A stretch of 64,000 bases of DNA, from the sequence record MW630116.1; one strand, 5' to 3'. Source of the stretch: Escherichia phage vB_EcoM-ZQ3. Under the pieces are notes generated by a model, which was not told the DNA's origin, did no database searches, and worked only from the letters and a program-made list of their open reading frames with translations. Below are positions 26,089-62,077 of the stretch, in pieces. A program made the position numbers and the translations under genes. Positions within the stretch are counted from its first letter, which is position 1. Each line of letters opens with the position of its first letter.

Positions 26089-26157
26089 GTAGTTTACATG
26101 CTGATAGGACTATGTTATAGTAGTCCTATCAAATCAACAACCAAACGGAAAAAACAA

Positions 26158-26421
26158 ATGAAAACGTATAAAGAATTTATCGCTGAATCTCAATCTTCTA
26201 CTCTGTCAGAGAACTACGAATCATTCTCTTACAACAACGACCATGCAATGTTCTACGACCGAAACATCGGTACTTATGTCCATGTGTGGGGTGTTAAAGA
26301 TGGTAACGTAGTTGTTAAGAAAAACTCTAAAGAAGGCAATGGTCGTGGCCAGGTAAAAATTACCAGCAAGAAAGCTATCCAAGCTTACGTCGATTATGTT
26401 AAACGCGAAGCTGGTATTTAA
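26158..26421 (+). CDS. Internal-protein-like gene with canonical capsid-targeting sequence MKTYKEFIAE
   Basis: 87 aa; own early-promoter cassette upstream; no T4 counterpart recognised. Confidence 0.55.
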   Translation: MKTYKEFIAESQSSTLSENYESFSYNNDHAMFYDRNIGTYVHVWGVKDGNVVVKKNSKEGNGRGQVKITSKKAIQAYVDYVKREAGI

Positions 26422-26483
26422 TAGTTTACATGATGATAGGACTATGTTATAGTAGTCCTATCAAAACATGAGAGGATAATAAA

Positions 26484-26669
26484 ATGAAACGCGCTGAACT
26501 GATTCGTAATGTTGCTGTAGTAATTGCTTCAATGGCTTTTAGTTTTTCGATGTTTGTAGGATTCATTTGTGGACTACTGACGACAACCGAAAACTCTATC
26601 TCATTGGTAGTGGCATTTCTAATCGGCTTAATCGCCATCGTTATGGATAAAATTGCAAAAGGTGAGTAA
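26484..26669 (+). CDS. Small hydrophobic (membrane) protein
   Basis: 61 aa, two hydrophobic helices; promoter cassette and GAGAGGA RBS upstream. Confidence 0.5.
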   Translation: MKRAELIRNVAVVIASMAFSFSMFVGFICGLLTTTENSISLVVAFLIGLIAIVMDKIAKGE

Positions 26670-26670
26670 A

Positions 26671-27033
26671 ATGAAATATCATGTATATGCTGATTTTGAA
26701 GCTAATCCTTCTAAAGACCCTGATTGTCGTTTGTTACGTGAACCGTTTGATTCAGCCACAGAAGCATGGCACTGGATTAAATCTAAATCACCCGGTTATA
26801 TGTTCTTTGAAGTAGTCGATGACAATGGTGCACTGCATCCAGCCCCTACGGAAACTATTAATTTCCTTCTGTTTGCTGGTTATGAATACTATCCTTATGG
26901 TGGTATCGACGACCTTTACGCTAAAGGTAAAACTGTCGAAGCTCTTCGTGAAATATATAAGAACGCTGAAGAAAATTTCGACTGGTACCATATTGTTAAT
27001 GCCCATACCTTTGAAGTGGTGGAACATTCATGA
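26671..27033 (+). CDS. Hypothetical protein
   Basis: ATG overlapping the upstream stop; 120 aa. Confidence 0.5.
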   Translation: MKYHVYADFEANPSKDPDCRLLREPFDSATEAWHWIKSKSPGYMFFEVVDDNGALHPAPTETINFLLFAGYEYYPYGGIDDLYAKGKTVEALREIYKNAEENFDWYHIVNAHTFEVVEHS

Positions 27034-27320
27034 TTCTTTATGCTAAAGTAAAATCTGTTGAGAATGGTTATGAAAGCGATCAGCAAGCAGCTAAAGCATT
27101 GGTCAATGATTACGGTATTTTGACTAACTTTGAAGTTGAAAAAGTTTACATCGACCGTTCATCTTCGCAGGTTAAATTACTCTGGGAAGACGGTAAATTT
27201 AATAGCGTGAATTTTGATTTCTTTATTGAAACAGAAAAAGGTCCTCTTGAATATGATATTTTCAAGAATCCTTTGAAATTACGTTGCATTGAATATAATT
27301 ACATTAATATGGTACGGTGA
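27030..27320 (+). CDS. Hypothetical protein
   Basis: 96 aa; ATGA overlap with the upstream gene. Confidence 0.45.
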   Translation: MILYAKVKSVENGYESDQQAAKALVNDYGILTNFEVEKVYIDRSSSQVKLLWEDGKFNSVNFDFFIETEKGPLEYDIFKNPLKLRCIEYNYINMVR

Positions 27321-27324
27321 GTAA

Positions 27325-27840
27325 ATGAATATTTGTTTAGGCAGTACAATTCCTAAGGGCTACGTAATTGATGTCACTACCTATGAAAATGATGGTGACA
27401 ACTATAAAACCAAAACATTGTTTGAAGTGGAAGAGCATGAGCTCCAACAGTTTAAATATCTCTTGAAGAAATTTAAGAGCCGTCATTCTAGCACTAAAGC
27501 CGAACGTTATTGCGGTAATACACCATTCAGTGATTGTTCGCTTTTAATCTATGAATACTTGGTTGAAGGACTGTTCTCAGACCAGCTTTATCCAGAATTC
27601 ATTAAAAAGGTCTTTGGTATCGAAGTTGACCTTGGTGACAAATCCGAAGAAGATGAAACACGTGTATTCGACCTATTCTTTGAGAGCGGAGATGAGATAT
27701 CTCAAGGACTTATTGATATTCTTGGCTATGCTTCTGAATACTATGATTACGATTTCTTGCGTGTAGTTGAACGTGTTGAATTCGCTTATATTGAAGAAGA
27801 AATTGTTTTGCCGACTGTTAAAATGATTGATTTGCTTTAA
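27325..27840 (+). CDS. Hypothetical acidic protein
   Basis: 171 aa; GTGAGTAA RBS-like sequence upstream. Confidence 0.5.
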   Translation: MNICLGSTIPKGYVIDVTTYENDGDNYKTKTLFEVEEHELQQFKYLLKKFKSRHSSTKAERYCGNTPFSDCSLLIYEYLVEGLFSDQLYPEFIKKVFGIEVDLGDKSEEDETRVFDLFFESGDEISQGLIDILGYASEYYDYDFLRVVERVEFAYIEEEIVLPTVKMIDLL

Positions 27841-27919
27841 GAATTATGTGTTATTATTAATTCATACCCTCTATTACCAAAGGTGCTCTAAAGTGCCTTT
27901 CATAATAGAAAGTTATTAA

Positions 27920-27994
27920 GGCCCTGTAGCTCAATGGGAGAGCTGTCAGCTCATAACTGATAGGTAGCTGGATCGAAACCAGCCAGGGTCACCA
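27920..27994 (+). tRNA. tRNA with CAU anticodon (Met, or Ile if lysidine-modified), CCA encoded
   Basis: Manual cloverleaf: acceptor GGCCCTG/CAGGGTC, D-stem GCTC/GAGC, anticodon loop CTCATAA, T-arm GCTGG-ATCGAAA-CCAGC, discriminator A, CCA. Confidence 0.8.
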
Positions 27995-28000
27995 AACAAA

Positions 28001-28072
28001 TGGTGCATCGTATAAAGGTTATTACGGGGAGCTGTTAACTCCTTTATCTTGGTTCGAGTCCAAGTGCGCCAG
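28001..28072 (+). tRNA. tRNA-Asn (GUU anticodon), no encoded CCA
   Basis: Acceptor TGGTGCA/TGCGCCA, anticodon stem GGGAG/CTCCT with loop CTGTTAA, T-arm CTTGG-TTCGAGT-CCAAG; 6 nt after the previous tRNA. Confidence 0.7.
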
Positions 28073-28117
28073 TAATTTAAACGAAGTAAATTAAGTGCTC
28101 TATCCAAATAATAAATA

Positions 28118-28136
28118 CTCCTATATTTTATAGGAG
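28118..28136 (+). promoter_or_regulatory. Hairpin sequestering the RBS of the downstream endonuclease gene
   Basis: Inverted repeat CTCCTATA-ttt-TATAGGAG; right arm is the SD 10 nt before the ATG at 28147. Confidence 0.5.
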
Positions 28137-28146
28137 ATAATTGGTA

Positions 28147-28812
28147 ATGAGCATTTGTAAACATTGTAATATGGAATTTGATATTTCTAATAAACCTAAA
28201 GGATGGATGGCTAACCACACTAGATGGTGTAAATCCAACCCTAAATTGGAATTGTATAAAGAAAGTTCTAAATCAGCCATTGCAGCAATGAATAAAGCAC
28301 GTATAGCTTCAGGTAATTTAAACCAGTATGTTGTATCTAAAAAGACTGGTGTCCCTGTAGTAATTTCGGAAGAGACTAGACAAAAATTGTCAGCCGCTTC
28401 ATTAGGTAGAGAACACTCTGAGGAATCTAGAATAAAAATATCTAATGCTCGGAAAAAATGGTTGAATGAAAACCCTGATAAACATCCTTGGAAGAAAAAT
28501 ACAAAATTTAAATCTGTGCCTTGTGAATTTTTGAAATCTAAATTAATAGAAAACGGAATTTCATTTATTGAAGAATACCAACCGGTTAAAAACCGAGCGT
28601 ATTGCACGGATATTGCTTTAATAGATAAAAAGATTATTATTGAAGTTAATGGAAACCAACATTACTCCAATCCTAAGAAAAAGATTTTGGCCCCTTATTA
28701 TAAAGAACGCCATGATATTATAAAATCATTAGGATGGGAAATATATGAACTTCATTATGCTGAAGTTTATAAAGAAGATATTGTAAATAATTTAATTGCC
28801 TCTATAGTGTAA
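28147..28812 (+). CDS. Putative free-standing homing endonuclease (N-terminal Cys/His motif, NUMOD3-like repeats, C-terminal Vsr/DUF559-like nuclease motif)
   Basis: CKHCN...HTRWC; ETRQKLSAASLGREHSEESRIKISNARKKW; C-terminal D..IIIEVNGNQHY..RHD...LGWEI; sits between tRNA genes and overlaps tRNA-Arg by 15 nt; no GIY-YIG motif. Confidence 0.6.
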   Translation: MSICKHCNMEFDISNKPKGWMANHTRWCKSNPKLELYKESSKSAIAAMNKARIASGNLNQYVVSKKTGVPVVISEETRQKLSAASLGREHSEESRIKISNARKKWLNENPDKHPWKKNTKFKSVPCEFLKSKLIENGISFIEEYQPVKNRAYCTDIALIDKKIIIEVNGNQHYSNPKKKILAPYYKERHDIIKSLGWEIYELHYAEVYKEDIVNNLIASIV

Positions 28813-28873
28813 TGGATAGCATATAATCGTTCTAAGGTTAATGGTGAGAGTTCAAATCTTTCTAGAGGCACCA
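28798..28873 (+). tRNA. tRNA-Arg (UCU anticodon), CCA encoded
   Basis: Acceptor GCCTCTA/TAGAGGC, D-stem GTGT/GCAT, anticodon loop GTTCTAA, T-arm GAGAG-TTCAAAT-CTTTC, discriminator A plus CCA. Confidence 0.8.
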
Positions 28874-28891
28874 ACTTTAAGTGAGGAAAAT

Positions 28892-29236
28892 ATGAAAGGC
28901 AATATTTATTTGGTAGTTCATGATTTAACGTTTTATTTTAACGAACAGGATACAGTTATTTCCGACCGGTTGATTAATTCGTTATATCAACACGCTGATT
29001 ACGTTTATTTTCAAAATGAATTCGGACATTGGAAGTTTCTTAAAAACCGTTCCGGGTTAACTAGTTTTGAATACTTTGACCGTAAAGACCTTTTAAACGA
29101 AATTCCATTACAACATCGGTTCCAGAAACGCGAATCACTATACTATTGTCGCCATATACCAAATGCTGAATGTGTTTATGAAGCGATTAATCTATGGCGT
29201 CGGCGTCGAGAGCAAATTGATGATATGCCAAAATAA
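28892..29236 (+). CDS. Hypothetical protein
   Basis: 114 aa from the ATG after GAGGAAAA immediately 3' of tRNA-Arg. Confidence 0.5.
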   Translation: MKGNIYLVVHDLTFYFNEQDTVISDRLINSLYQHADYVYFQNEFGHWKFLKNRSGLTSFEYFDRKDLLNEIPLQHRFQKRESLYYCRHIPNAECVYEAINLWRRRREQIDDMPK

Positions 29237-29546
29237 GAAGCCGGGTCGCTACCGGCAAGACGTCGGACTGATGTTCCCTGAGTAAGGATTGGTCTTAATA
29301 AATCTTTACGATTTGTTAATACCCCCTTACATCACAGCAGAAACGGCGCACAGAATTATCGATTCGAGGAAATATCTTTGCCGTAAGCCGAGTAGCGTTT
29401 TTGACGGAACGTTCGGATATGGTCGAGATATGGCCTTTTAAAAATATTGAGTAGCGTCAACTGCTTAATAACCGGGTTCGAATCCCGGCGTTTCGTACAA
29501 ACACTTACCTAGTAGGTGGAAACCCGACAAGGTTGCCGCAAGGCAT

Positions 29547-29575
29547 AGCCCCTTCCGAAAGGTTGGGGCTTTTTT
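29547..29575 (+). terminator. Rho-independent terminator
   Basis: AGCCCC...GGGGCT stem followed by TTTTT. Confidence 0.6.
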
Positions 29576-29576
29576 G

Positions 29577-29584
29577 TATAAATA
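29577..29584 (+). promoter_or_regulatory. Late promoter TATAAATA upstream of the 29620 internal-protein-like gene
   Basis: Exact consensus directly after the terminator, 35 nt upstream of the ATG. Confidence 0.5.
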
Positions 29585-29619
29585 TAGTAAACAATAAACC
29601 TACTTTCTAAGGACCATCA

Positions 29620-30240
29620 ATGTATACTTTTAATGAATTTTTAGCCGAAACGGAAGTAATCACCGAAGCCGGCGTACGTATGACAAAAGAGAAATGGCAA
29701 GCTGCTTACGATGCTATTTCTGGTACAAAAACTAGTACAGAGTTTTTCAAAAACGTTCAAGCCATGTACGGTATCGACACTTCTAGCCAAAAAGAATATT
29801 ACAGAGCTTCTAAAGCATTCAAAGATATTGTTAGTGGTGGTGTTTCTGCTAAATCGGGTTCGCCTAAAGTAAAACCTGCTCCTACCATTCCTAAACCTGC
29901 GACCCCTAAAGCAAAACCTGAGCCTAAGCCTGAAGTAAAAGCAACTCCTAAAGCTCCTGCTCTTAAGTTTGATACTTCTAGCCTGGAAAAAAAATATAAA
30001 CAACTATCTTCGCTTGTTCGTGATATTGAATCCGATACATCTTCACTCGTTCGTGAATTCAATATTCTTCGTAATGGCCAACATATCAACAACCTTGATA
30101 CTCCAGACCTTTATCGTCTTTATTTGACTATCGAAGGTTTGAAGTATACTCAACCACTTCACGATGCGATTAAAGAAAAACTTCGTCAGGCAGGTCGTTT
30201 GGCTGCTGACGCTGCTCAGTATGCAAAAACTCGTAAGTAA
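29620..30240 (+). CDS. Internal-protein-like gene with capsid-targeting-type N-terminus and Pro/Lys-rich linker
   Basis: MYTFNEFLAETE resembles the capsid-targeting peptide; low-complexity PKPATPKAKPEPKPEVKATPKAP region; 206 aa. Confidence 0.55.
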   Translation: MYTFNEFLAETEVITEAGVRMTKEKWQAAYDAISGTKTSTEFFKNVQAMYGIDTSSQKEYYRASKAFKDIVSGGVSAKSGSPKVKPAPTIPKPATPKAKPEPKPEVKATPKAPALKFDTSSLEKKYKQLSSLVRDIESDTSSLVREFNILRNGQHINNLDTPDLYRLYLTIEGLKYTQPLHDAIKEKLRQAGRLAADAAQYAKTRK

Positions 30241-30349
30241 AGAATGGGGACTTCGGTCCCCATTAGGGGGTCTATAACTTACTAAAAAAGTTGTTTACTT
30301 CTTCCCTAGTTGTGTTACTATAGTCCTATTAAAACATGAGGAGAATATT

Positions 30350-30853
30350 ATGAGTCTTTACACTGAACTGAATAAAAAATCTGAAGAATCCGCTGAAACT
30401 ATTTTTAAAAACGTGCAAAAGCGTATTTTAGAAAAGATGTATAACACTGCAGCTAAAGGTGAAAAATCTTGCCGGTTTCCGATGAGGTGTTCTTCCGATT
30501 TATGCGCAAATACTATTGAATGGCTGGAAAGTGAAGGTCTTACGGTAGAGAAAAACCCGGCGTCTTCTATTGACAGTGAATCATATATTAGTATTTCTTG
30601 GGATAAATCAAGGGTAGAAGAGAAAGATGGTGATTGGGTTGTAGATGTTAAAACTTCTGATGGCGGACGTTCTGTTGAAGTTTCAGCTGTAGTTAAAGGT
30701 ACCCACGAACAAAGGACTTGGGGTTGGGGTGGTGAAGAAAAAGAAATTGTTCTTAGTGTGATTGCCAGGTCAACTAGTAATAAAATTGCACAAAGCATCA
30801 TTGACGCTGCAATTGCTGAAGCAGAAAAAATTTGCAAAATTAAAAATAAATGA
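30350..30853 (+). CDS. Hypothetical protein
   Basis: 167 aa; promoter cassette upstream. Confidence 0.5.
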   Translation: MSLYTELNKKSEESAETIFKNVQKRILEKMYNTAAKGEKSCRFPMRCSSDLCANTIEWLESEGLTVEKNPASSIDSESYISISWDKSRVEEKDGDWVVDVKTSDGGRSVEVSAVVKGTHEQRTWGWGGEEKEIVLSVIARSTSNKIAQSIIDAAIAEAEKICKIKNK

Positions 30854-30911
30854 TGTACAAACGCCAAGGACGGTGTTACTATAGACCTATCAACTACAGA
30901 GGAGAAACAAA

Positions 30912-31139
30912 ATGGCTACAGTTAGTATTGATGTCGTTGATTATGAATACACCGAAGAAGTTATTCGCAGCCGTCACCCTGAAGTTCGTATCGATTCAGT
31001 CCAAGATTCCAAGTTTTGGACAACCGAGCTTAATCTGAGTGGTCCTTATGAAGCTGTTAAGAAGTTCATGGTTGAAGAATACTGCGAAGGCATGCACCCC
31101 GAAGACGCCGAGTTTTATGTCAATTTGATTAAAAAATAA
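30912..31139 (+). CDS. Hypothetical protein
   Basis: 75 aa; GGAGAAA RBS. Confidence 0.5.
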   Translation: MATVSIDVVDYEYTEEVIRSRHPEVRIDSVQDSKFWTTELNLSGPYEAVKKFMVEEYCEGMHPEDAEFYVNLIKK

Positions 31140-31211
31140 TTTACAAACTCTTGAGAGCAGAGTATAATGCTCTCATTGGATAATAAACACCACCAATTGA
31201 AAGGTAATAAT

Positions 31212-31805
31212 ATGAACACACTGAAGAAACTTGTTGAATTCATCCGCACTAAACTGGGTACTGCTATGGCTAAAAATCTGACTGTCGAAGAACAGTATAA
31301 CGCAGCTGCAGATAAGTTGATTACCCAAATCAAAGAACTAAAAACGGCTTCTGTTAAATCTATTAATGAAGAAAAACGTATTCGCGAACTTGTTATTGAA
31401 AAGAATAAGCAAGCCGCTTCTAAGGAACGTGAAATTCGTAAGCTCCTGGCTGAAGGACAAGATGTTACCATGCATGCTAAGCTTGGTCTTCTGTATCGTC
31501 GAACTGCCGAACAACTTAATACAAAAGCTGACGGGTACGCTGCTATGCGAATTGAAATTGCTCGTAAGGTGGTTGAACTTGACGATGCTCGTCAGAATCT
31601 GGCAATCAAACTCGAATACATTCGTGAAACTCGAGCAGCTAATGCCCTTGGTATCTCTACGGCTGATGATGTAATTGAAATCGCTGCACTAACTAAGGTT
31701 GATATCGAAGACACTCTGACTCGTGTTGAAACGTTCAATGGCACACCAGCTGGTGTCGAAACCACTTCTGCTGATGTACAAGAATATATTAACTCTTTGA
31801 AATAA
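31212..31805 (+). CDS. Hypothetical coiled-coil protein
   Basis: 197 aa; heptad-rich; promoter cassette upstream. Confidence 0.5.
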
Positions 31806-31813
31806 AATAATAC

Positions 31814-31835
31814 GGAGGACTCCGGTCCTCCTTTT
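31814..31835 (+). terminator. Rho-independent terminator
   Basis: GGAGGAC-TCCG-GTCCTCC then TTTT. Confidence 0.55.
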
Positions 31836-31854
31836 GGATAATAAAGGAGTTAAC

Positions 31855-32277: not shown

Positions 32278-32417
32278 AACTATGTATGAAGGCAAGCCTT
32301 TGCTTAAAAGAGTTGATGCTTTAAGTGCTATTGATGCGCTTTATGAAACCATGGTTGTTAGTCCTAATTTCACTAACAATTTAATCCTTGAGCAATTTAT
32401 TATGGAATGTAGAGAAT

Positions 32418-33043: not shown

Positions 33044-33148
33044 CAAGAAAAATAAAAAGGTTTACGCTTCTCAAATGATTAGTTATAATGAACTCCTAGC
33101 TAGACGTGAAAATGAAACAATAGAAAACTTTATTAAGGAATGTAGAAA

Positions 33149-33943: not shown

Positions 33944-34005
33944 AACAGTTTACAACAAGATAGGGCTATGTTATAGTAGTCCTATCAAATTAAATGGAGT
34001 CCACA

Positions 34006-35227: not shown

Positions 35228-35306
35228 TTTCACCAAACTGTTTACAAGGTCTGTAGTTGTTGATACTATAGACCTATCAAAACAAATGAGTGAATGGAGA
35301 TACAAA

Positions 35307-35507
35307 ATGACTACTTTGAATAAACGTTTCGGTAAAGCTAAACCTGGCTGTGCAGCAGAACGTCGTTACATTTTCGCTCAGTTAGAAGATGTAGAGTATC
35401 AGATTAATCAAGTTCACATTACTGGCATCGAGCCTATGTGTGGCCTTGAAGCTCTTCGTGAAGTTCGTGACGGGTATCGTCGTGATATCGAAGAAATGTC
35501 AAAATAA
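35307..35507 (+). CDS. Hypothetical protein
   Basis: 66 aa from the second ATG of an ATGGAG...ATG arrangement. Confidence 0.45.
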   Translation: MTTLNKRFGKAKPGCAAERRYIFAQLEDVEYQINQVHITGIEPMCGLEALREVRDGYRRDIEEMSK

Positions 35508-35565
35508 GTGTACAAACTGATAGGGCTATGTTATAGTAGTCCTATTAAAACATGAGGAGAATAAT

Positions 35566-35871: not shown

Positions 35872-35872
35872 T

Positions 35873-37732: not shown

Positions 37733-37740
37733 GTAATAAA

Positions 37741-37764
37741 TACCTCCTATAAACGTGGGAGGTA
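37741..37764 (+). promoter_or_regulatory. Hairpin spanning the RBS of gene e with an internal late-promoter-like element
   Basis: TACCTCC-tataaacgtg-GGAGGTA; right arm is the e SD; loop holds TATAAACG (6/8 to TATAAATA); matches the arrangement described for T4 gene e. Confidence 0.5.
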
Positions 37765-37766
37765 TT

Positions 37767-38255
37767 ATGAATATATTTGAAATGCTTCGTAATGACGAAG
37801 GTCTTAGACTGACTTTATACAAAGACACCGAAGGCTTTTGGACGATTGGCATAGGCCATTTAGTAACAAAGAACCCGTCTTTAGCCGTAGCTAAAGCTGA
37901 ACTTGACAGAATGATCGGTCGTAAATGCAACGGTACAATTACCCTTGATGAGGCTGAAAAGCTATTTAATGAAGACGTTGATAAAGCCGTTCGCGGAATC
38001 TTGGGTAATGCTAAACTTAAACCGGTATATGATTCTTTAGATGCAGTTCGTCGATGTGCATTGGTCAATATGGTCTTCCAAATGGGTGTAGCAGGCGTCG
38101 CAGGTTTTACTAATTCTCTTCGTATGCTTCAACAGAAACGTTGGGATGAAGCGGCAGTAAATCTAGCCCAATCTAAATGGTATCGTCAGACACCTAATCG
38201 CGCGAAACGCGTAATCTCAACATTTAAAACAGGAACTTGGAAAGCGTATATATGA
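37767..38255 (+). CDS. e: Endolysin (T4 lysozyme, gene e)
   Basis: 162 aa; [32 protein letters not shown]... near-identical to T4 lysozyme. Confidence 0.95.
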
Positions 38256-38533: not shown

Positions 38534-38591
38534 TGTTTACTTCCTCCAAGGGTTTTGATACTATACATTCATCAACTACTTGGAGGAAATT

Positions 38592-39005: not shown

Positions 39006-39096
39006 GGAAAAAGGTTGCGATGGTAAAGCTTAAACAGTTTACGCTTAAGTATTAATATGGTATAATTACTCTATCAAAACAAACAAGGAAACAAAA

Positions 39097-39399
39097 ATGA
39101 AAACATATCAAGAATTTATTACTGAAGCGCGAGTGAGTGCAGGTAAATTAGAAGCCGCTATAAATAAAAAGGCCCATTCATTTCACGATTTGTCCGATAA
39201 AGACCGTAAGAAACTTGTAAGCCTTTATATTGACAAAGAGCGTATTCTCGCTCTTCCTGGCGCTAATGAAGGTAAACAGGCCAAGCCTTTGAATGCTGTT
39301 GAAAAGAAAATTGATAACTTTGCTTCTAAATTCGGTATGTCTATGGATGACCTTCAGCAAGCGGCTATCGAAGCAGCTAAAGTAATTAAAGGTAAATAA
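39097..39399 (+). CDS. Internal-protein-like gene with capsid-targeting sequence MKTYQEFITE
   Basis: 100 aa; canonical capsid-targeting peptide; promoter cassette upstream. Confidence 0.6.
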   Translation: MKTYQEFITEARVSAGKLEAAINKKAHSFHDLSDKDRKKLVSLYIDKERILALPGANEGKQAKPLNAVEKKIDNFASKFGMSMDDLQQAAIEAAKVIKGK

Positions 39400-39671
39400 C
39401 AGTTTACTTTCTCCTAGAATTGTGATAGTATAATCATAATTACTTGGAGAGGTAAAATGACTCGATGAAAAAATTTTAATGAAGCCACACTGGTATAAGT
39501 ATTAAGGCAAAAATATTTACATTCAAATAACATGGGAACAAGCTGGACCTCATGATTCTATGAGGGATTCCCGCCAACCTGTAATAAGGTCGAGCCCAAG
39601 TGCGGTAATGGGTAAATACAGAAATGGACAATTCATGTGCCATGGAATGGCCCAAACTTAGAGAGAACAAA

Positions 39672-41365: not shown

Positions 41366-41664
41366 TGGCTCAAATCCTATCAGGCTTTGGAACTCATTAT
41401 GAATCATCTAGACGCATAACTGAAAGCAATCCTTTTGGCCTTGTTCCGAAGCACAAAAAAATTCAAAGCCTTGATGACTTTGAGAACCGCCTATGGGCCC
41501 TCTTTAATGAGTACAAGGCATATCTGAAAGAAGACGCTGACGATTGTCTTGAAGAAGATGAGATTGCGTATTACGAACAACGCCTTGAACAGCTCAAGAA
41601 CTTCCACCAGGTTCGTGACGAAGTATCTAAAGCAGTTAAAAAGTTAATTCCTTTCAAAGAGTAG
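41365..41664 (+). CDS. Hypothetical protein (T4 vs-cluster position)
   Basis: 99 aa helical protein next to regB. Confidence 0.45.
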
Positions 41665-41720
41665 TTTACTTCTCCTCTAGATGTGTTACTATAGACCTGT
41701 CAACTAGAGGAGAAATCAAA

Positions 41721-45254: not shown

Positions 45255-45283
45255 AGCCCCTTCCTTATGGTTGGGGCTTTTTT
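45255..45283 (+). terminator. Rho-independent terminator after rI
   Basis: AGCCCC...GGGGCT stem plus TTTTT. Confidence 0.6.
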
Positions 45284-45349
45284 GCATTTAGCAGTTTACT
45301 TCTCCTCAGGTTGTGTTATAGTAGTCCTTACTTACTAGAGGAGAACGTT

Positions 45350-45793: not shown

Positions 45794-46008
45794 TGTTATA
45801 TGACCCAAGCGGTTGTTCTGAAGATGGTGTGATTGTTCTGGAGCCTGAGCATCCAGTTGGTGATGTATATCGCACCGTTGAAGTATGCGAATGTAATTTC
45901 GTTGAAGGTAATACTGGCGGAATTTCCATTGAGCAAGATGATGATGTTATTTACCTGGATGCAAGCCAAGTAGAAGCTCTTTATAGCATTTTAAAACATA
46001 ATCGGTAG
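45793..46008 (+). CDS. Hypothetical small protein
   Basis: 71 aa. Confidence 0.45.
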   Translation: MLYDPSGCSEDGVIVLEPEHPVGDVYRTVEVCECNFVEGNTGGISIEQDDDVIYLDASQVEALYSILKHNR

Positions 46009-46065
46009 TTTACGTCTTGGTAGGACTATGATATAGTAATCCTACCAAAACAAATGGAGAACAAA

Positions 46066-48648: not shown

Positions 48649-48767
48649 ATGTGGGGACCTTCGGGTCCCTTTAGGGGGTTAAAATATTTTTAAAAAAGTA
48701 GTGTACATGCTTTTAGGATATGTTATTATAGACCTATCGAAACGAAATGAGTAAATTGGAGAATAAA

Positions 48768-50174: not shown

Positions 50175-50232
50175 TTGTTTACAAGGTCTATGGTTGTGTT
50201 ATTATAGACCTATCAACTACTGGAGGTAAAAC

Positions 50233-50673: not shown

Positions 50674-50822
50674 CGTATTGCAAACTATACAAAACAGAAA
50701 TCAGAACGTATTAGTACTCTTCGGAAATTTGAAGAACGTTTAAAGACGGTTCACGCATAAACGCTTTACCCAAGGACGGGTTATAATGGTTTTGAGTTCC
50801 AATTCAATCTGAGGAAATAGTT

Positions 50823-51818
50823 ATGAGCATTACATCTGATGCGGTAAAACATGAAATTAACGGTTTATGTGCTTCACAGATTAAAGTGTGGTTTAAAGAC
50901 CATAATGATCGCAGAGCACTTAATTATGAGCAAATTGCTATCCAAGTTCATCAATTACTGACTAGTAAATTTGATTTTCATATGCCGTCTGAAATCTATA
51001 CTAATCTACCGCGAGCGCTTATTAAAGCGTGTAAAGGTTACGGAAAATCAATGGCCGATGGAATCTTCAGCGCGCTGAATAAACTTAACGTTCTGTCGAT
51101 GATTAACTCTAACAACATCCTGCGTAATCTAGGACGTACTGATTTGTTCGGTCGGGAACAGTGTAAAATGCCTTTGAAATGGATTGTTGCTCATCTTAAC
51201 GAGAACCAAACACGTTTTATGGCCGTATCAGCACGCTTACAAATGGGCCTAGATCGTCAGATGAACTTTAAAACTCATCCACGTTATTCAGGTTCAACTG
51301 TCTTTTATAAATGTGAGCTTCAAAAGGTCGGTGGCAAAACTGTCTTAGTAGTTCGTGTAACGTTTGAAGGACGACGTCAAGGATATTTTGACCTAATCGG
51401 CTCTGGTCTTAAACATTGTGGATTTATTGACGAAGTTGATATCAAGCGAGACGGCATTGGATACCGTATTGGATATGTTTGTACTCTTAAAGAAGAGATT
51501 TCAGGACCAGCACCAGGACTAAAAGACGTTAGATATAAAGACGAGCTCGTTGAAGAAATAAAAGAAGTTGAATATGATATCAACCAAGAAGATGCTCTTA
51601 AAGACCTTATTGATGAACTGAACCAAGACGTTATTCCGGTTCAGAAATTTGAATCAAAACATGCTGAGCAAATCAAATACTTTGAAGCTTTGATTAACGA
51701 ACTTAATGTAACTATTCAACAGACTGACGATGAAATCTCACGATTAGCAGGCTTAAACGGTAAAAATAAAACAGAACGAGCTAATCTTATTCAGGTAGTA
51801 AAACTTCTTAAGGAATGA
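50823..51818 (+). CDS. Hypothetical protein with C-terminal coiled coil
   Basis: 331 aa; promoter at about 50770. Confidence 0.5.
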   Translation: MSITSDAVKHEINGLCASQIKVWFKDHNDRRALNYEQIAIQVHQLLTSKFDFHMPSEIYTNLPRALIKACKGYGKSMADGIFSALNKLNVLSMINSNNILRNLGRTDLFGREQCKMPLKWIVAHLNENQTRFMAVSARLQMGLDRQMNFKTHPRYSGSTVFYKCELQKVGGKTVLVVRVTFEGRRQGYFDLIGSGLKHCGFIDEVDIKRDGIGYRIGYVCTLKEEISGPAPGLKDVRYKDELVEEIKEVEYDINQEDALKDLIDELNQDVIPVQKFESKHAEQIKYFEALINELNVTIQQTDDEISRLAGLNGKNKTERANLIQVVKLLKE

Positions 51819-51873
51819 TGTACAACCAAGGATGGTTGGAGTATAATAAATTTTTCAACATGAGGAATATAAA

Positions 51874-52806: not shown

Positions 52807-52868
52807 ATCAGTTTACAACCAAGGATGGTTGGAGTATAATGAATCTATCTTAACGAGAGGAAAATATT

Positions 52869-53819
52869 ATGACACGTTCACATTATGTTGATTATTTTGC
52901 AGGTCTTATCGCTAACGTTCATGCCCAACGTGCTTCTGGTTCATTAGGATTTGATGTTCCACACCGAGTTGTAGTAAGTGGTATTCTTCGCGATTTTGGT
53001 ACATACACAGGCCAAGAAAATCATATCTGTAAAGATACTCAGAATGCGTATTCTCATTCATTAGGGACACTGCTTCAATGGTTCAAACGTTCTCGTTTAT
53101 TATCTTCTACTGTAGCTCGCGATAACATTAAAAACTTTATGAAGCCGAGCTTTATTAAATCTGTGACATCTAAAACCGATTTGGTTGAATTTACTATTAT
53201 TAACGATGTTAAAAAGACTCATTTGGCTGATTGGTTATCTACCATTCCTGAAACTAAATTTGCTGATAAATTTGCTTGTGAATTCAATAACCAAGTGAAT
53301 ATGCTTTTTAAACATTCACGTAAATTATTCACAGGCGGCGACGGTCGTACAAATAAAGTTCATGTTAAAGATTGGGTTACTGCAGTATTCAAACCAACTG
53401 GTAATTGTAACGCATCATTGTCAATTGATATCCAGGTTCCTTATTACTACTCACGTAATCTCGGTACCATGAAAGCTGAAGAAATTAATAAGCATAACAA
53501 AACCGTTCGTTCGTTGTCTTATAAACTTATTACATTGTTAGAGACTATGGATGTTGTTGAAACGTTCGACGAATCCGAAGATAACGGTTCAATGTTATAC
53601 AGTTCTCGTACCCGAATTAAGCTGAAGAACCCTAATATGTATAAACCTAAGCTTATTAAAGAACCTAAAGCAGAAAAGGTTGATATCATGGCTGAAGAAC
53701 GTGAATACCTCAAATCTCGTCTGAAAGAAGTCGAAGCCCAGATTGCAGAACAAACTAAATCGTTAAAAGCTCTGAATGCGAAAGCGGACGGTTTACGAAA
53801 TGCCATTGAGGTTTTATAA
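52869..53819 (+). CDS. Hypothetical protein with C-terminal coiled coil
   Basis: 316 aa; near-identical promoter cassette upstream. Confidence 0.5.
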   Translation: MTRSHYVDYFAGLIANVHAQRASGSLGFDVPHRVVVSGILRDFGTYTGQENHICKDTQNAYSHSLGTLLQWFKRSRLLSSTVARDNIKNFMKPSFIKSVTSKTDLVEFTIINDVKKTHLADWLSTIPETKFADKFACEFNNQVNMLFKHSRKLFTGGDGRTNKVHVKDWVTAVFKPTGNCNASLSIDIQVPYYYSRNLGTMKAEEINKHNKTVRSLSYKLITLLETMDVVETFDESEDNGSMLYSSRTRIKLKNPNMYKPKLIKEPKAEKVDIMAEEREYLKSRLKEVEAQIAEQTKSLKALNAKADGLRNAIEVL

Positions 53820-55253: not shown

Positions 55254-55424
55254 ATGCAAGTTAAATTATTGTACCGTTTATTAAAAAATGGCAAGCATGA
55301 TTGGTATTTGCTTATTAAAACCGATCCGAATTTTTTCTCTGGACAACCATTTACAGTTCGTCCTACTAAACGTCAGCTTCGCAAAGCTAAACGTTCTCAT
55401 CGTAACTTTTATAGAGAATATTGA
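55254..55424 (+). CDS. Hypothetical small basic protein
   Basis: 56 aa; strongly basic C-terminus; early promoter and hairpin upstream. Confidence 0.4.
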   Translation: MQVKLLYRLLKNGKHDWYLLIKTDPNFFSGQPFTVRPTKRQLRKAKRSHRNFYREY

Positions 55425-55425
55425 T

Positions 55426-55851: not shown

Positions 55852-55853
55852 AT

Positions 55854-55861
55854 TATAAATA
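55854..55861 (+). promoter_or_regulatory. Late promoter TATAAATA upstream of gene 49, followed by an ACCCTTA...TAAGGGT inverted repeat
   Basis: Exact consensus 30 nt before the ATG; inverted repeat 55862..55886 overlaps the SD. Confidence 0.5.
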
Positions 55862-55890
55862 CCCTTATCTATTTAAGGTAAGGGTTTATC

Positions 55891-58178: not shown

Positions 58179-58645
58179 ATTATGATAGATTTTATCCTTG
58201 CGATTTTGTGAATGGCCCTGGTTGCAGGGTCGTTCTTTTCGTTACAGGTTGTTTGCATAAATGCGAAGGGTGTTATAATAAATCAACATGGAACGCTAGA
58301 AATGGTATTCCATTCACGGGTGAAACACTAGAGCAATTAATTGAATGTTTGAATAATGATTATATAGAAGGATTAACTATAACTGGAGGAGACCCTCTCT
58401 ATCCCGATAACAGAGATGTTGTTCATTGCATTGCTCAAACAGTAAAAAATCTTTATCCCAATAAAAGCATTTGGTTGTGGACAGGATATAAGTTTGAAGA
58501 TATTAAACAACTAGAAATGCTTAAATATGTTGATGTTATTATTGATGGGAAGTATGAGAAAAATCTTCCGACCAAAAAACTGTGGCGAGGATCAGATAAT
58601 CAGCGACTTTGGTCAAATACCGATGGGGTGTGGAAACATGATTAA
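58175..58645 (+). CDS. nrdG: Anaerobic RNR activating enzyme NrdG (radical SAM)
   Basis: 156 aa; Cys-rich radical-SAM-type N-terminus (CDFVNGPGCR...CLHKCEGC). Confidence 0.93.
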   Translation: MNYDRFYPCDFVNGPGCRVVLFVTGCLHKCEGCYNKSTWNARNGIPFTGETLEQLIECLNNDYIEGLTITGGDPLYPDNRDVVHCIAQTVKNLYPNKSIWLWTGYKFEDIKQLEMLKYVDVIIDGKYEKNLPTKKLWRGSDNQRLWSNTDGVWKHD

Positions 58646-58755
58646 ATTGAATTACATTATGGATACTATAAATGATATGATTTTTCGTTTTGGTCCAGAA
58701 TTTTATTCGCAGTATAGTTTGGTGTTTATCAATGCTTAGTTAATTAAGGGTAAAT

Positions 58756-58971
58756 ATGTATAAATTTCGTAAAGGTTTAGCTGATTTTCTTACAACTGTA
58801 ACGTTCTTTTTGTTTATGGCAGTTGGAGCTATTTTTCTTATTCCTTTTACTGTTGTATTTTTCTTGATTAGTTTAATTTCTCCGGAAAAGGGTTTATCCT
58901 CCAGCGAATTCAATGAACGTTTGGACAAAATTACTAATAAACTGAATTCTGTTCTTGATAAAAAGGCTTAA
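58756..58971 (+). CDS. Small membrane protein
   Basis: 71 aa; one long hydrophobic helix. Confidence 0.45.
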   Translation: MYKFRKGLADFLTTVTFFLFMAVGAIFLIPFTVVFFLISLISPEKGLSSSEFNERLDKITNKLNSVLDKKA

Positions 58972-58973
58972 TT

Positions 58974-59291
58974 ATGATTAGTTTTGAGCGGTATGTGGTA
59001 GAGAGTTGGAAAGGTTTTGATATGTTCGGTAATGACTATTATTTTTACGAATGTAATCTAAATCCTAGTTTTTGGGCTGGACGTGAACGAGATCTCGAAG
59101 AAATTAATGCTCGTGCCGAATTGTTAGGTGAACTGCCTACAGTTTATTTTACCTTTGATGAATCTGGATTTGTTATCCAGGTTTATTTTCCTGAAGAAAA
59201 CTCTGGCGAGGATTCTGTTAATCCTCCTTATTGGGCTTACCAAGGAATTATTTCTCGTGGAACAAAACTCGAACTTAAAGAACAAGATTGA
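58974..59291 (+). CDS. Hypothetical protein
   Basis: 105 aa. Confidence 0.5.
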   Translation: MISFERYVVESWKGFDMFGNDYYFYECNLNPSFWAGRERDLEEINARAELLGELPTVYFTFDESGFVIQVYFPEENSGEDSVNPPYWAYQGIISRGTKLELKEQD

Positions 59292-59580
59292 AATTTATGG
59301 CATCCCTGAAGAAGTAGGACGTTGTCCGGGATGTTATACTGTTACAAAACTTTTAAAGGAGCTCAATGCTCCTTATACATTTTATAAAGTCCTCACTAAT
59401 AATGGTAAGATTGAATATGACCGTCCTTTAATCGTATCTCTTGCTAAACGTGCAGGATTCACTTCACTTAATATTCGTTATCCTGTCATATTTTTAAATG
59501 ATAAGAAACAAAAGAATATTGCAGAGTTTAAAAAGTCCTTGATTTCATTAGGATATGACTCTGATATCATAGAAGATTGA
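59287..59580 (+). CDS. Glutaredoxin-like protein (possible NrdH-type redoxin); start codon unresolved
   Basis: IEIYGIPEEVGRCPGCY redox motif; no in-frame ATG near the N-terminus (candidates ATT 59287, GTG 59257); overlaps the upstream gene. Confidence 0.45.
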   Translation: MEIYGIPEEVGRCPGCYTVTKLLKELNAPYTFYKVLTNNGKIEYDRPLIVSLAKRAGFTSLNIRYPVIFLNDKKQKNIAEFKKSLISLGYDSDIIED

Positions 59581-59745
59581 CCAGGTGCCGCCTGGTCTTC
59601 TTTATCTCATTTCTAATATAATCCATTGGAATCTTCACTTCACTATCTCCTTGTGCCCCTCTCAAATCGAAAATATTTTCATAAAACAGTTTACATCCTC
59701 AATAGATGTGTTAAGATTAAACCATCCACTATAGAGGAAAATAAA

Positions 59746-59928
59746 ATGACAATTGAAGATAAAGAAATTAAGGTCGACCAGTACTATTCTGTCAATGGTA
59801 ATGCAATACAGATAACCAGAGTTTCAAGCCTGGATGTTTGGTACCGTTCAATCAAATATCCAGAAATTGGTGAAATGCTTTGTGACCGTGGTATCTTCTG
59901 TTCAATTGCGAAGGAAATTAAGCCATGA
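59746..59928 (+). CDS. Hypothetical small protein
   Basis: 60 aa; GAGGAAAA RBS downstream of a promoter cassette. Confidence 0.4.
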   Translation: MTIEDKEIKVDQYYSVNGNAIQITRVSSLDVWYRSIKYPEIGEMLCDRGIFCSIAKEIKP

Positions 59929-60173
59929 TTAGTTTAGATTCAAAGAAAGTTGTTCTAACTCTTAATGTAAACAACGAACGTCCAGTATTCGTTACCATTT
60001 CCGATTTGCATGTTGAAATTGCTAATGGCGTCCGTACTTATCAAACGTCTAAAACACAATGGGACTATATCCCAATGTTGACGCTTACTCAGCGTTTAGA
60101 ATCAATCGGTCTTAAAGACCTTTCAGTAAGTGAAATGAATTTTATCAAACGCATTGTATCAATCAACCTCTGA
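59925..60173 (+). CDS. Hypothetical protein
   Basis: 82 aa; ATGA overlap. Confidence 0.45.
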   Translation: MISLDSKKVVLTLNVNNERPVFVTISDLHVEIANGVRTYQTSKTQWDYIPMLTLTQRLESIGLKDLSVSEMNFIKRIVSINL

Positions 60174-60180
60174 GGTACTT

Positions 60181-60474
60181 ATGGGTAAAACGTATCGTCG
60201 TAAAGATTTGAAAGTTCGTGATTACGACTATTTTGGTAAACGTAAAGCTCCTGACGGTGTTAGCCACAAAGTCATGGTTGAAAACATTTTCCGCTCAGAT
60301 AAATGGAAACGTATGAAAGGCGTTGATTCTGAAGTCAAGAACGAAATGAATCGACAACTCCGCAAAGAAGTTCGTAAGTTGAAAAAAGATGTTTACAGTA
60401 AAGAAGATTATGATTATAATACTTCTCATACTGAAGCCAAACGTAAAGCTAATGAATGTTATCGTTACAGTTGA
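60181..60474 (+). CDS. Hypothetical basic protein
   Basis: 97 aa; GAGGT RBS. Confidence 0.45.
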   Translation: MGKTYRRKDLKVRDYDYFGKRKAPDGVSHKVMVENIFRSDKWKRMKGVDSEVKNEMNRQLRKEVRKLKKDVYSKEDYDYNTSHTEAKRKANECYRYS

Positions 60475-60481
60475 GGAAATT

Positions 60482-60616
60482 ATGAATATCAAACGAATGC
60501 TTTTTAAGCAGGGATTATATACTTTAAATGTTAATCCAAAGGGTGATACAACTAAATGGTCTGTAAATGACTGGATTAAGTTCATCGATGAAAATGGGGC
60601 GTGGAACACAAAATGA
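60482..60616 (+). CDS. Hypothetical small protein
   Basis: 44 aa; GAGGAAA RBS. Confidence 0.35.
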   Translation: MNIKRMLFKQGLYTLNVNPKGDTTKWSVNDWIKFIDENGAWNTK

Positions 60617-60813
60617 ATCCTGAAAATATTGTGTCATGGCAACTTCGTGAAGAACGTGCCGAATTCTTTGCCAATATGAAACTCAATGGTGTTGAGGACG
60701 AAGACTTTTTACGTTGGTTCTGGATTTACAAATACAAAGAATGCCAACATGCCGTGCTATTGACTTGCGCAGCTATGTATGAAGGCTGGAAAGGCGCTAA
60801 AAAGTTCGGTTAA
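60613..60813 (+). CDS. Hypothetical protein
   Basis: 66 aa; ATGA overlap. Confidence 0.4.
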   Translation: MNPENIVSWQLREERAEFFANMKLNGVEDEDFLRWFWIYKYKECQHAVLLTCAAMYEGWKGAKKFG

Positions 60814-60876
60814 TAATGTACGACGATAGGAAGACATGTTATTATCTTCCTATCGTCTTAAAATGAGGAAAATATC

Positions 60877-61116
60877 ATGGCCCAAGAATTAGATTTTATC
60901 AAATTCAAAAAACACCTCGACGTTAAAATTGGGGATTCAATTGTTAGGATTGAGTATGACATTTTAACAGATGCTATTACTGTTAGTTGTGATGGAAATA
61001 GTTTCAGCTTCGATACAACCGAAAATAAATACCCAATCTATAAAGGCATCTTTGATATAGGTGTTGATATTACTCCACGTGATACAAATTACTTACTTTT
61101 CATGCTTAAAAAATAG
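60877..61116 (+). CDS. Hypothetical protein
   Basis: 79 aa; promoter inside a 13-bp-arm inverted repeat upstream. Confidence 0.45.
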   Translation: MAQELDFIKFKKHLDVKIGDSIVRIEYDILTDAITVSCDGNSFSFDTTENKYPIYKGIFDIGVDITPRDTNYLLFMLKK

Positions 61117-61182
61117 TATATAAACTCTTGAGAGCAGAGTATAATTCTCTCATTGGATAATAAAATAACCGAGGAAAATAAT

Positions 61183-61515
61183 ATGTCTACTAAAATCAAA
61201 AACGTAGTTAATTCTTTCGCTTTCGATAAAGTTGTTGCTCTTCTGGAATCCGGCAATATTGTTACTCCTCAAGTCCTTGACGCGTGGGAATTCCGTCTTT
61301 ATGAAATTATGCAAAAACACGACCAGAAAATTGGACGTAATTCTATTCGCGAAATTCTAGTACAATATATTCTTTCTGAATTTGACGTTGCTGCATTTGG
61401 TGTTGAATCTAAAGCTTATCAGAAACATGAAATCTCTGAAAAAACTATCCGTCGTATGAAAAATCAACGTAAGAAAAAATTCGCTGACTTGAAAATTGTT
61501 AAGGCGGTAAAATGA
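61183..61515 (+). CDS. Hypothetical protein
   Basis: 110 aa; GAGGAAAA RBS; repeated promoter cassette upstream. Confidence 0.5.
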   Translation: MSTKIKNVVNSFAFDKVVALLESGNIVTPQVLDAWEFRLYEIMQKHDQKIGRNSIREILVQYILSEFDVAAFGVESKAYQKHEISEKTIRRMKNQRKKKFADLKIVKAVK

Positions 61516-61739
61516 GCGTATTAACAGAAACTTTGATTAATGACCTGCGTCTAGCTGGTTACGAAGTTGGTACAAATAGCCTAGGTCTTCCTCAGATTGA
61601 AGGTCCTGGATTTATTCTTGAATACGAATTCAAACAATGGTGGTTATATGCTACGGTTGACGATGCATTGAATATTGATTTCGTTGACCAATTTGATTCG
61701 TTGGATGATGCTCTTGAAGCAGCAAAGGAACTAGAATGA
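61512..61739 (+). CDS. Hypothetical acidic protein
   Basis: 75 aa. Confidence 0.45.
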   Translation: MSVLTETLINDLRLAGYEVGTNSLGLPQIEGPGFILEYEFKQWWLYATVDDALNIDFVDQFDSLDDALEAAKELE

Positions 61740-62005
61740 AATTAACTCGAATCAGTATAACTGAAGAAAAGCTGGGCGAATTTTATGTTGACGAATACAT
61801 GAAAGTCACGTATTTTCCATTCGTTAAAGGTGTTGGTTTTTGGGAAACTCATGTATCTCAATTAAACGAAGGCGACTATAACGAAACTCATGAGAACTTT
61901 TTAGATTTTCTTTATAATGCCGGTCTTACTGAGCTTTATATCGATATCCATGAGTTCAAACGTTTAATGGAAAAAGTGTTTCAGGCTTATTGTTTGCTCC
62001 GATAG
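61736..62005 (+). CDS. Hypothetical protein
   Basis: 89 aa. Confidence 0.45.
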   Translation: MKLTRISITEEKLGEFYVDEYMKVTYFPFVKGVGFWETHVSQLNEGDYNETHENFLDFLYNAGLTELYIDIHEFKRLMEKVFQAYCLLR

Positions 62006-62077
62006 TATCTCGTGCTTTAAGATAGGTCTCTAAATATTATGATATAATAGACCTATGAATTGAGCTAAGAGGTACTT

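Follow-up and report, generated by a model that had tools for sequence, protein, structure and literature searches.

In a 64,000-nt stretch of Escherichia phage vB_EcoM-ZQ3 (MW630116.1; hereafter the window), 15 of the 22 early promoter cassettes contain an inverted repeat with its left arm in the spacer between the -35 and -10 elements, 5' of the predicted transcription start (+1). In ten of them (class A) the right arm stops at about +3/+4, whereas in five (class B), including those of the nuclease genes regB and denV, it is the Shine-Dalgarno (SD) sequence of the downstream gene. We consider it fairly probable that these features are best explained by hairpins that form in read-through RNA and mask the SD in class B, by a class A that resembles the promoter early stem-loop (PeSL) cassettes, and by cassette-mediated gene exchange. 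The initial annotation of this DNA had placed nearly every early promoter in an inverted repeat that includes the downstream SD. That interpretation is supported in part. It is correct for a minority of cassettes, which is conserved and includes those of the two nuclease genes, but as a general account it fails, since seven of the 22 promoters have no significant embedded repeat and the ten repeats of class A end before the SD.

Early promoters of the window

Over bases 26000-64000, the window shares about 96% identity with many Mosigvirus coliphages (RB69/JS09/HX01-like). According to annotated relatives and T4, the plus-strand genes are arranged in the order 4, 2, 3, 1, 57A, ipI, tRNA genes, e.x, nudE, e and denV, followed by internal protein (IP) genes, vs.8-vs.3, regB, vs, tk, rI, mobD.x, nrdC.x, 49, nrdD and 55. 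Judged by its sequence, this region is the hyperplastic, counter-clockwise early region of a T4-type phage (Mosigvirus, RB69/JS09-like).

The pattern GTTTAC-N17/18-TAnnnT has 21 matches in the window, compared with 2.1 +/- 1.35 in shuffled sequences, and 19 of the 21 are on the plus strand (25737-60391). A two-block position-weight scan trained on the GTTTAC sites recovered them together with three ATGTAC variants (30853, 51818 and 60816), and found no early promoter on the minus strand of the window. The curated set comprises 22 intergenic T4-type early promoters, all on the plus strand between 25737 and 60816, in good agreement with the two dozen GTTTAC/TATAGT-type promoters proposed before. 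A generic sigma-70 consensus scan was dropped as promoter evidence because its counts were close to expectation (72 found versus 67.5 expected, and 58 versus 63.1); only the phage-specific pattern discriminates. In RB69, 57 early promoters were predicted earlier, and repeats are not mentioned there (PMC1524935). The T4 GenBank records hold no promoter features for comparison, and an Rfam search returned three tRNAs only.

A cassette is about 60 bp long and consists of an AT-rich tract, GTTTAC, a spacer of 17 or 18 nt, TAnnnT, a conserved discriminator/leader (AGnCCTATCAAAAC), the SD and ATG. The sequence 5' of all 22 promoters is A-rich, giving the combination of a sigma-70-type early promoter and an AT-rich tract that defines PeSLs. 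As is also typical of PeSLs, the cassettes end in the SD and ATG of downstream genes that include PHROG families of unknown function and genes with IP-like MKTYKEFI leaders. For every cassette, +1 was taken as 7 nt after the -10 element, which puts C at -3 to -1 (TATAGT-AGTCCT-A), in agreement with the RB69 early-promoter logo (Nolan 2006, PMC1524935).

Inverted repeats and the two classes of cassette

For 15 of the 22, complementarity between the spacer and the downstream segment exceeded that of shuffled spacers (p < 0.05; Fisher p = 6e-18, with copies that are not all independent, several being paralogous). The RNA-fold z-scores of the hairpins ranged from -2.4 to -6.8 for 13 of the 14 tested, the exception being the cassette at 45294. 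Each left arm stops 9-20 nt short of the -10 element and is therefore 5' of the +1 predicted from spacing. The individual repeats reported in the initial annotation are real in three cases, namely TTCCTCCAAG/CTTGGAGGAA at 38541/38579, TTCTCCTCTAG/CTAGAGGAGAA at 41670/41704, and the 13-bp arms GACGATAGGAAGA/TCTTCCTATCGTC at 60822/60845. The family assigned to 26105, 26437, 33957 and 35521 also exists, as GATAGGRCTA...TAGTCCTAT, of which the corrected pattern finds four copies (26102, 26434, 33959 and 35518). The string quoted for this family, gATAGGACTAtgttaTAGTCCTATc, had lost three bases and has no match even at 2 mismatches; the actual sequence is GATAGGACTA-TGTTATAG-TAGTCCTATC.

In class A (n = 10, Table 1), the spacer contains the left arm; the right arm starts in or just after the -10 element and stops at about +3/+4, leaving the -10 element in the loop. 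The SD is 12-20 nt further downstream, outside the hairpin, and for most of the ten its accessibility is predicted to be equal whether the RNA is read-through or local. The class A hairpin is real, specific to read-through RNA by the predicted +1, and not terminator-like. As to its role, our guess is that it might be a 3'-end barrier or a processing mark for upstream cistrons.

In class B (n = 5), the left arm is directly 3' of the -35 element and has the consensus TTCTCCTCTAG, an anti-SD, and the right arm consists of the SD plus its 5' flank. Folding of read-through versus locally initiated 5' untranslated regions, which had been suggested as a check, bore out the expected difference: the mean unpaired probability of the class B SD is predicted to be 0.10-0.41 in read-through RNA versus 0.43-0.71 in local RNA. 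The respective values are 0.10 and 0.59 for denV (38535), 0.22 and 0.47 for regB (41664), 0.12 and 0.58 for 45294, and 0.41 and 0.71 for 59689. When an anti-SD was searched for in the 17 cassettes outside class B, both in the spacer and in the 90 nt 5' of the -35 element, there was no excess complementarity, and only 35508 reached z = -2.9.

Seven promoters (30293, 30853, 33060, 39037, 48701, 51818 and 52811) have no promoter-embedded repeat that is significant against spacer shuffles. Two of them, 30293 and 48701, have a UUCG-loop hairpin just 5' of the promoter, and the other five are without a hairpin in or next to the promoter. The hairpin of the former two is part of a repeated element at 30243-30275 and 48651-48680, which reads GGGGAC(C)TTCGG(G)TCCC and then TTAGGGGGT and lies 20-30 nt 5' of the promoters; UUCG-tetraloop hairpins of this kind have been described as RegB-resistant. 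Among the other five, the promoters at 33060-33089 and 39037-39066, which both read GTTTACGCTT..., have GCTT right after the -35 element at a MotA-box-like spacing to the -10 element (for example, GCTTAA-N12-TATAAT at 39043), and may be dual early/middle promoters.

The function proposed for PeSL stem-loops is that of terminators or attenuators of upstream transcription, which would make any overlap with the SD fortuitous. We regard this as improbable for the cassettes of the window. One RB49 PeSL stem-loop did cut lacZ expression as strongly as rrnB T1 (Arbiol 2010, PMC2839356), and the hairpins described here are intergenic and stable (-11 to -20 kcal/mol). However, none of the 15 cassette hairpins is among the terminator-like structures listed for the window. 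A-rich sequence (CAAAAC, AAATTATG) without a U-tract follows the right arms, and true U-tract terminators stand separately nearby (~45255, 48651, 59579 and 63552). The hairpins therefore lack the make-up of intrinsic terminators, which combine a G+C-rich hairpin with an immediate U-tract. In addition, termination gives no account of a class B right arm that is the SD throughout the lineages compared below.

Conservation and covariation of the pairing

The orthologous promoters of T4 have the same geometry with different arm sequences. The T4 arms are TGATGAGGTA/TACCTCATCA at P-ipI, TTGACAAGATTA/TAATCTTGTCAA at P-mobD.2, CTCCTGTAG/CTACAGGAG at P-denV and TTCCTCTTGACTG/CAGTTAAGAGGAG at P-regB, and P-ipII has 15-bp arms. 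The promoter at 50177, class A in the window, has a class B orthologue in T4 (53943). In a set of 16 class A promoters, taken from the window, from T4 and from two metagenomic relatives, the cognate duplexes of spacer and discriminator had a mean of -15.8 kcal/mol versus -6.5 kcal/mol for non-cognate ones (0/20000 permutations). The class A arms are thus promoter-specific and do not form one shared palindrome, which argues for base pairing rather than a shared protein operator. That the palindromes are operators at which a dimeric phage or host protein shuts off early promoters is therefore very improbable. The repeats do overlap the -10 element, and the shut-off of T4 early promoters is described as incompletely understood (PMC3014915); but the arms differ among promoters and among orthologues while their complementarity is kept, as expected of base pairing. 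A palindromic operator was rejected as well for want of a shared half-site, cognate arms pairing far better than non-cognate ones.

For class B, the upstream regions of regB and denV were compared among T4-like contigs from IMG/VR. Among the T4-like lineages whose promoter could be recognised, nearly all have the SD of these genes paired with a segment 5' of the predicted +1. The pairing partner lies in the spacer in some lineages (CTCCTGTAG/CTACAGGAG, CTCCGTTTG/CAAACGGAG, TTCTCCTCTTTATG/CATAAAGAGGAGAA and TCTCCTGTAAG/CTTACAGGAGA), and in the -10/discriminator region in others (GTGTTCTC/GGAGAACAC and GATGTCTTCC/GGAGGACATC). Cognate class B duplexes had a mean of -14.6 kcal/mol versus -9.2 kcal/mol for non-cognate ones (0/20000 permutations). 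In an alignment anchored on the TCC/GGA cores only, 12 of 15 stem pairs showed changes on both sides, and the covariation score was 0.362, compared with 0.149 in shuffled alignments (0/500 reached the observed value) and 0.08-0.13 in slid registers. The sequence comparison thus shows both the class B pairing and its conservation, which is maintained by compensatory changes.

A different arrangement was noticed in four jumbo-phage contigs of 345-378 kb (L041, L043, L047 and L049), where GGGTTGACTTCGGTCAGCCC followed by a T-run stands about 60 nt 5' of denV. This element is a terminator hairpin with a TTGAC -35 element in its left arm and TATAAT after it, and represents another terminator-promoter fusion.

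Cassettes in gene gain and loss

Breakpoints in the alignments with two relatives are often inside cassettes (12/28 versus 6.7% of all positions, p = 8e-8). The enrichment expected by the initial annotation was thus found relative to all positions, but not relative to intergenic positions, and because of the latter we rely on three clean indel loci. First, the gene at 26158-26421 is bracketed by two copies (26092 and 26424) of a 45-bp cassette, and is absent in L001 (phage mar005P1), which has a single hybrid cassette there. Second, the gene at 35307-35507, bracketed by the cassettes at 35240 and 35508, is absent in L099, with the crossover at the -35 element. Third, L001 has one gene more than the window at the 30853 cassette. 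At these three loci, the repeated cassettes act as short homologies for the gain, loss and swap of genes.

Several further observations concern the genes next to the cassettes. The internal-protein leader MKTYKEFI/MKTYQEFI starts three small genes (25801-26088, 26158-26421 and 39097-39399), of which 26158-26421 is an extra IP-like gene with the MKTYKEFI form. The cassette at 39402-39468 is followed only by a remnant mini-open reading frame (ORF), ATGACTCGATGA, whose first 8 nt equal the start of denV (ATGACTCG), and the same cassette stands before a complete denV in L036, a metagenomic T4-like contig. The cassette and its mini-ORF look like a scar of cassette-mediated recombination. Meanwhile, the promoters at 51818-51847 and 52811-52840 have an identical spacer and -10 element (AACCAAGGATGGTTGGAGTATAAT); paralogy of the genes that follow them (310 and 316 aa) was ruled out, as the proteins are unrelated.

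The inverted repeats might also be a matter of DNA only, either as recombination hot spots or as quasi-palindromes perfected by template switching between the arms. T4-type phages are known for quasi-palindrome-templated mutation, and such arm-to-arm correction would mimic covariation. In addition, cassette copies bracket indels, crossovers are found inside cassettes, and for PeSLs, the formation of mini-circles and recombination in the stem-loop itself have been described (Arbiol 2010, PMC2839356). Counting G.T versus A.C mismatches in the stems as a discriminator between RNA- and DNA-level constraint was given up, the counts being too few to decide, and this indecision leaves room for a DNA-level origin. 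Nevertheless, we think such an origin rather unlikely. Recombination requires direct repeats of the cassette and not an inverted repeat inside it, and the excess of breakpoints over the intergenic background is not significant. Moreover, a DNA-level origin does not account for one arm being the SD and the other lying 5' of the predicted +1, which is achieved by at least two geometries at denV.

A proposed transcript-origin gate on early genes

In the mechanism that we favour, the spacer, which is otherwise unconstrained, would have evolved complementarity to the downstream segment in the 15 cassettes. As the 5' arm is upstream of the predicted +1, the hairpin would form only in RNA from an upstream promoter and not in RNA from the cassette's own promoter. 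In class B the 3' arm is the SD and also the RegB target GGAG. On read-through RNA, that cistron would consequently be translated poorly and resist RegB, while transcripts of the gene's own early promoter would stay open for translation. Both translation and the RegB sensitivity of the site would then be set by the origin of the transcript, tying regB and denV to the brief burst of their own early promoters. With a confidence slightly short of even, we propose that an anti-SD inside the early promoter spacer or the -10/discriminator region is a conserved transcript-origin gate across Tevenvirinae. Such a gate would confine RegB and DenV, nucleases that may be harmful, and some small early proteins to their own immediate-early transcripts, with read-through RNA untranslatable and RegB-resistant at these sites.

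At 38535, 39402 and 41664, the stop codon of the upstream gene abuts the -35 element (at regB, TAG and GTTTAC share a G), and as no terminator intervenes, read-through is to be expected at these three. The claim that read-through RNA hides the ribosome-binding site (RBS) and local RNA frees it is kept for class B, in view of the left arm in the spacer, the predicted accessibility of the SD and the compensatory changes, and finds no support in the other 17 cassettes.

The same position of the stop codons favours translational coupling, in which the SD is masked on polycistronic RNA and opened by the ribosome terminating on the upstream gene. The stop overlaps or abuts the -35 element in TAGTTTAC at 41662-41669, and at 38535, at 39402 and in other lineages GTTTAC is preceded by TAG or TAA at a distance of 0-5 nt. 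The anti-SD accordingly begins about 6-8 nt past the stop, which would be within the reach of a terminating ribosome given the size of its footprint. On the other hand, long untranslated gaps and terminator-like hairpins separate the upstream gene from the cassettes at 45294 and 59689, and the left arm of several lineages overlaps the -10/discriminator region, more than 25 nt from the upstream stop. We regard coupling as somewhat unlikely to be the explanation of class B; it is compatible with the transcript-origin gate, and the two are not mutually exclusive.

Several points weigh against the gate and the wider explanation of which it is a part. The +1 positions were inferred from spacing alone, and RNA structure and translation effects in this phage are predictions. 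The arrangement is absent in one distant regB relative (L018), in L050 and in four jumbo-phage relatives of denV; meanwhile, the covariation families were picked from loci with a recognisable promoter, and the stem mismatches (G.T 6, A.C 3) do not separate RNA- from DNA-level constraint. Terminator-like hairpins are present upstream of 45294 and 59689, so that little read-through may reach these two cassettes, and the fold of 45294 is barely more stable than that of shuffled sequences (z = -1.2). Finally, with an intergenic-only background, breakpoints fall in cassettes in 7/14 cases versus 30%, which is not significant (p = 0.10).

Comparison with known systems

PeSL stem-loops are mostly located between the -35 and -10 elements or over the -10 element (Arbiol 2010, PMC2839356), and the placement of the class A stem-loop is the same, in keeping with the resemblance to PeSLs suggested earlier. 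The cassettes share with PeSLs (PMC2839356; Comeau 2014, PMC4122927) the succession of AT-rich tract, early promoter, stem-loop, SD and ATG, and an intergenic location in many copies in hyperplastic early regions, 5' of small unknown ORFs and IP genes. They also share copies that flank insertions, deletions and replacements. The IP-locus homology blocks of Repoila et al. (1994), as cited in the PeSL papers, belong to the same kind of system. Class A and the indel pattern fit the known PeSL cassettes. However, there are differences. The stems of RB49 are G/C runs, whereas the arms in the window, which is of another lineage (Mosigvirus/RB69-like), are AT-rich and promoter-specific. For T4 and PST, a published figure legend puts the stems just 5' of the promoter, while in the window, and in T4 according to the present scan, the left arm is inside the spacer. 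The published role is that of a terminator or attenuator, in contrast to the window hairpins, which have no U-tract. Neither PMC2839356 nor PMC4122927 describes a pairing with the SD.

Class B follows the logic of the hairpins of T4 e, soc, 49, I-TevI and segB and of Aeh1 mobE. In these, the SD is paired in a long read-through RNA, and transcripts from an internal promoter start beyond the 5' arm; for class B the latter follows from the predicted +1. The window has two such late hairpins of its own, which are internal positive controls for this logic. The one at gene e (~37735-37768) masks the SD by AATACCTCC/GGAGGTATT, and the one at gene 49 (~55853-55888) has TATAAATA followed by ACCCTTA/TAAGGGT. 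The parallel with T4 e and 49 drawn earlier thus stands for class B as regards the hairpin, but not as regards the promoter. The known cases use late promoters (gp55, TATAAATA) and delay expression, whereas class B has sigma-70 early promoters of the GTTTAC/TAnnnT type, with the 5' arm in the spacer. The predicted effect is the mirror image, as expression would be limited to the immediate-early burst. Genes so regulated "are all late genes" according to Edgell et al. (2010, PMC2988022), and PMC3014915 lists only late cases; an early-transcription review does not mention spacer repeats. Class B is therefore the hairpin logic of T4 e/49/soc/I-TevI built on early promoters, which the 2010 reviews give for late genes only, although an earlier notice in the older T4 literature (e.g. 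Liebig and Rueger 1989) is possible.

RegB, itself the product of an early gene, requires its site GGAGRAYARAA in single-stranded form, and secondary structure inhibits it (Durand 2006, PMC1702504), and the SD of regB is a known RegB target (PMC3014915, PMC1702504). The class B right arms and most leaders of the window likewise have GGAG and an A-rich tract (e.g. GAGGAGAATAATATG and GAGGAGAAATCAAAATG). They differ in that RegB cuts single-stranded RNA, whereas the class B hairpin would protect the site in read-through RNA. Such a link between RegB protection and a hairpin is not described in the RegB literature covered here.

If true, class B would be the first early-gene counterpart of the late e/49/soc/I-TevI hairpins, and at least some of the PeSL stem-loops would acquire a specific role that is not termination. 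Gene shuffling in T4-type phages is ascribed to PeSL cassettes, and the role of their stem-loop has so far been supported by one terminator assay in another lineage. Class B offers a testable alternative, with the 5' arm within the promoter and the RBS as the 3' arm. A classic T4 device would thereby be extended from late to early genes, which would help to explain the brief synthesis of RegB. In practice, the cassettes could provide compact promoter/RBS modules whose output is set by the origin of transcription. They can also help annotators of T4-like genomes to place gene starts and to predict indel hot spots.

Table 1. Early promoter cassettes of the window, and the repeat preceding gene 55
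Feature	Position	Strand	Class and inverted repeat
Early promoter 5' of ipI (ATG 25801)	25737..25800	+	class A, arms 25746-25753 / 25765-25772, z = -3.9
Cassette 5' of IP-like gene	26092..26157	+	class A, 11-bp arms 26102-26112 / 26121-26131, -10 in loop, z = -5.0
Near-identical copy of the 26092 cassette	26424..26483	+	class A, arms 26434-26444 / 26453-26463
Early promoter	30293..30349	+	no significant embedded repeat; upstream UUCG-loop hairpin 30243-30264
Early promoter, ATGTAC -35	30853..30911	+	no repeat
Early promoter 5' of e.6 homologue	31139..31211	+	class A, arms 31152-31159 / 31168-31175, z = -3.2
Early promoter GTTTACGCTT...	33060..33148	+	no repeat
Early promoter	33948..34005	+	class A, arms 33959-33968 / 33977-33986, one G.U pair, z = -5.6
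Early promoter	35240..35306	+	class A, arms 35247-35257 / 35265-35275, one G.U pair, z = -4.9
Early promoter, GTGTAC -35	35508..35565	+	class A, arms 35518-35528 / 35537-35547, z = -4.1
denV early promoter	38535..38591	+	class B, spacer anti-SD TTCCTCCAAG 38541-38550 / SD CTTGGAGGAA 38579-38588, z = -4.1
Early promoter GTTTACGCTTAAG... 5' of IP-like gene	39037..39096	+	no repeat
Early promoter, nested hairpins	39402..39468	+	class B, outer stem 39408-39414 / 39446-39452; inner class A stem round -10; z = -5.5
regB early promoter	41664..41720	+	class B, TTCTCCTCTAG 41670-41680 / CTAGAGGAGAA 41704-41714, z = -3.2
Early promoter 5' of 59-aa ORF (phrog_2758)	45294..45349	+	class B, weaker, TTCTCCTC 45300-45307 / GAGGAGAA 45338-45345, z = -1.2
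Early promoter 5' of mobD.2 homologue	46008..46065	+	class A, arms 46017-46025 / 46040-46048, z = -4.5
Early promoter 5' of nrdC.10 homologue	48701..48767	+	no embedded repeat; UUCG-loop hairpin upstream
Early promoter	50177..50232	+	class A, arms 50184-50191 / 50204-50211, z = -2.7
Early promoter, ATGTAC -35	51818..51873	+	spacer same as 52811; short hairpin inside spacer only
Early promoter	52811..52868	+	spacer identical to 51818
Early promoter 5' of 60-aa ORF (phrog_2283)	59689..59745	+	class B, TCCTCAATAG 59696-59705 / CTATAGAGGA 59729-59738, one mismatch, z = -2.4
Early promoter, ATGTAC -35	60816..60876	+	class A, 13-bp arms GACGATAGGAAGA 60822-60834 / TCTTCCTATCGTC 60845-60857, z = -6.8
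Inverted repeat round TATAAT, 22 nt 5' of gene 55 (late sigma factor); promoter class uncertain	62022..62056	+	ATAGGTCT/AGACCTAT

Other features

The inverted repeat just before 62078, in front of gene 55, falls at the end of the span that the initial annotation gave for the early promoter cassettes. It has no GTTTAC-type -35 element and was not confirmed as one of them. A MotA-box reading of this repeat was ruled out too, as its GCTTTA is 23 nt from the -10 element and 11-13 nt are required. The terminator upstream of the cassette at 45294 is an intrinsic terminator at ~45255-45283.

Early-promoter-like sites also occur within coding regions, at 53791, 55175, 58251 and 60391, and three of these four are kept at homologous positions in T4 (T4 47452, 42840 and 41261). 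Candidates for middle promoters of the MotA-box type (GCTTTA-N11-13-TAnnnT) are located at 27834-27857, 50763-50787 and 63578-63600, 5' of the tRNA cluster and of two genes, and the candidate at 63578 comes right after a strong terminator at 63552-63571.

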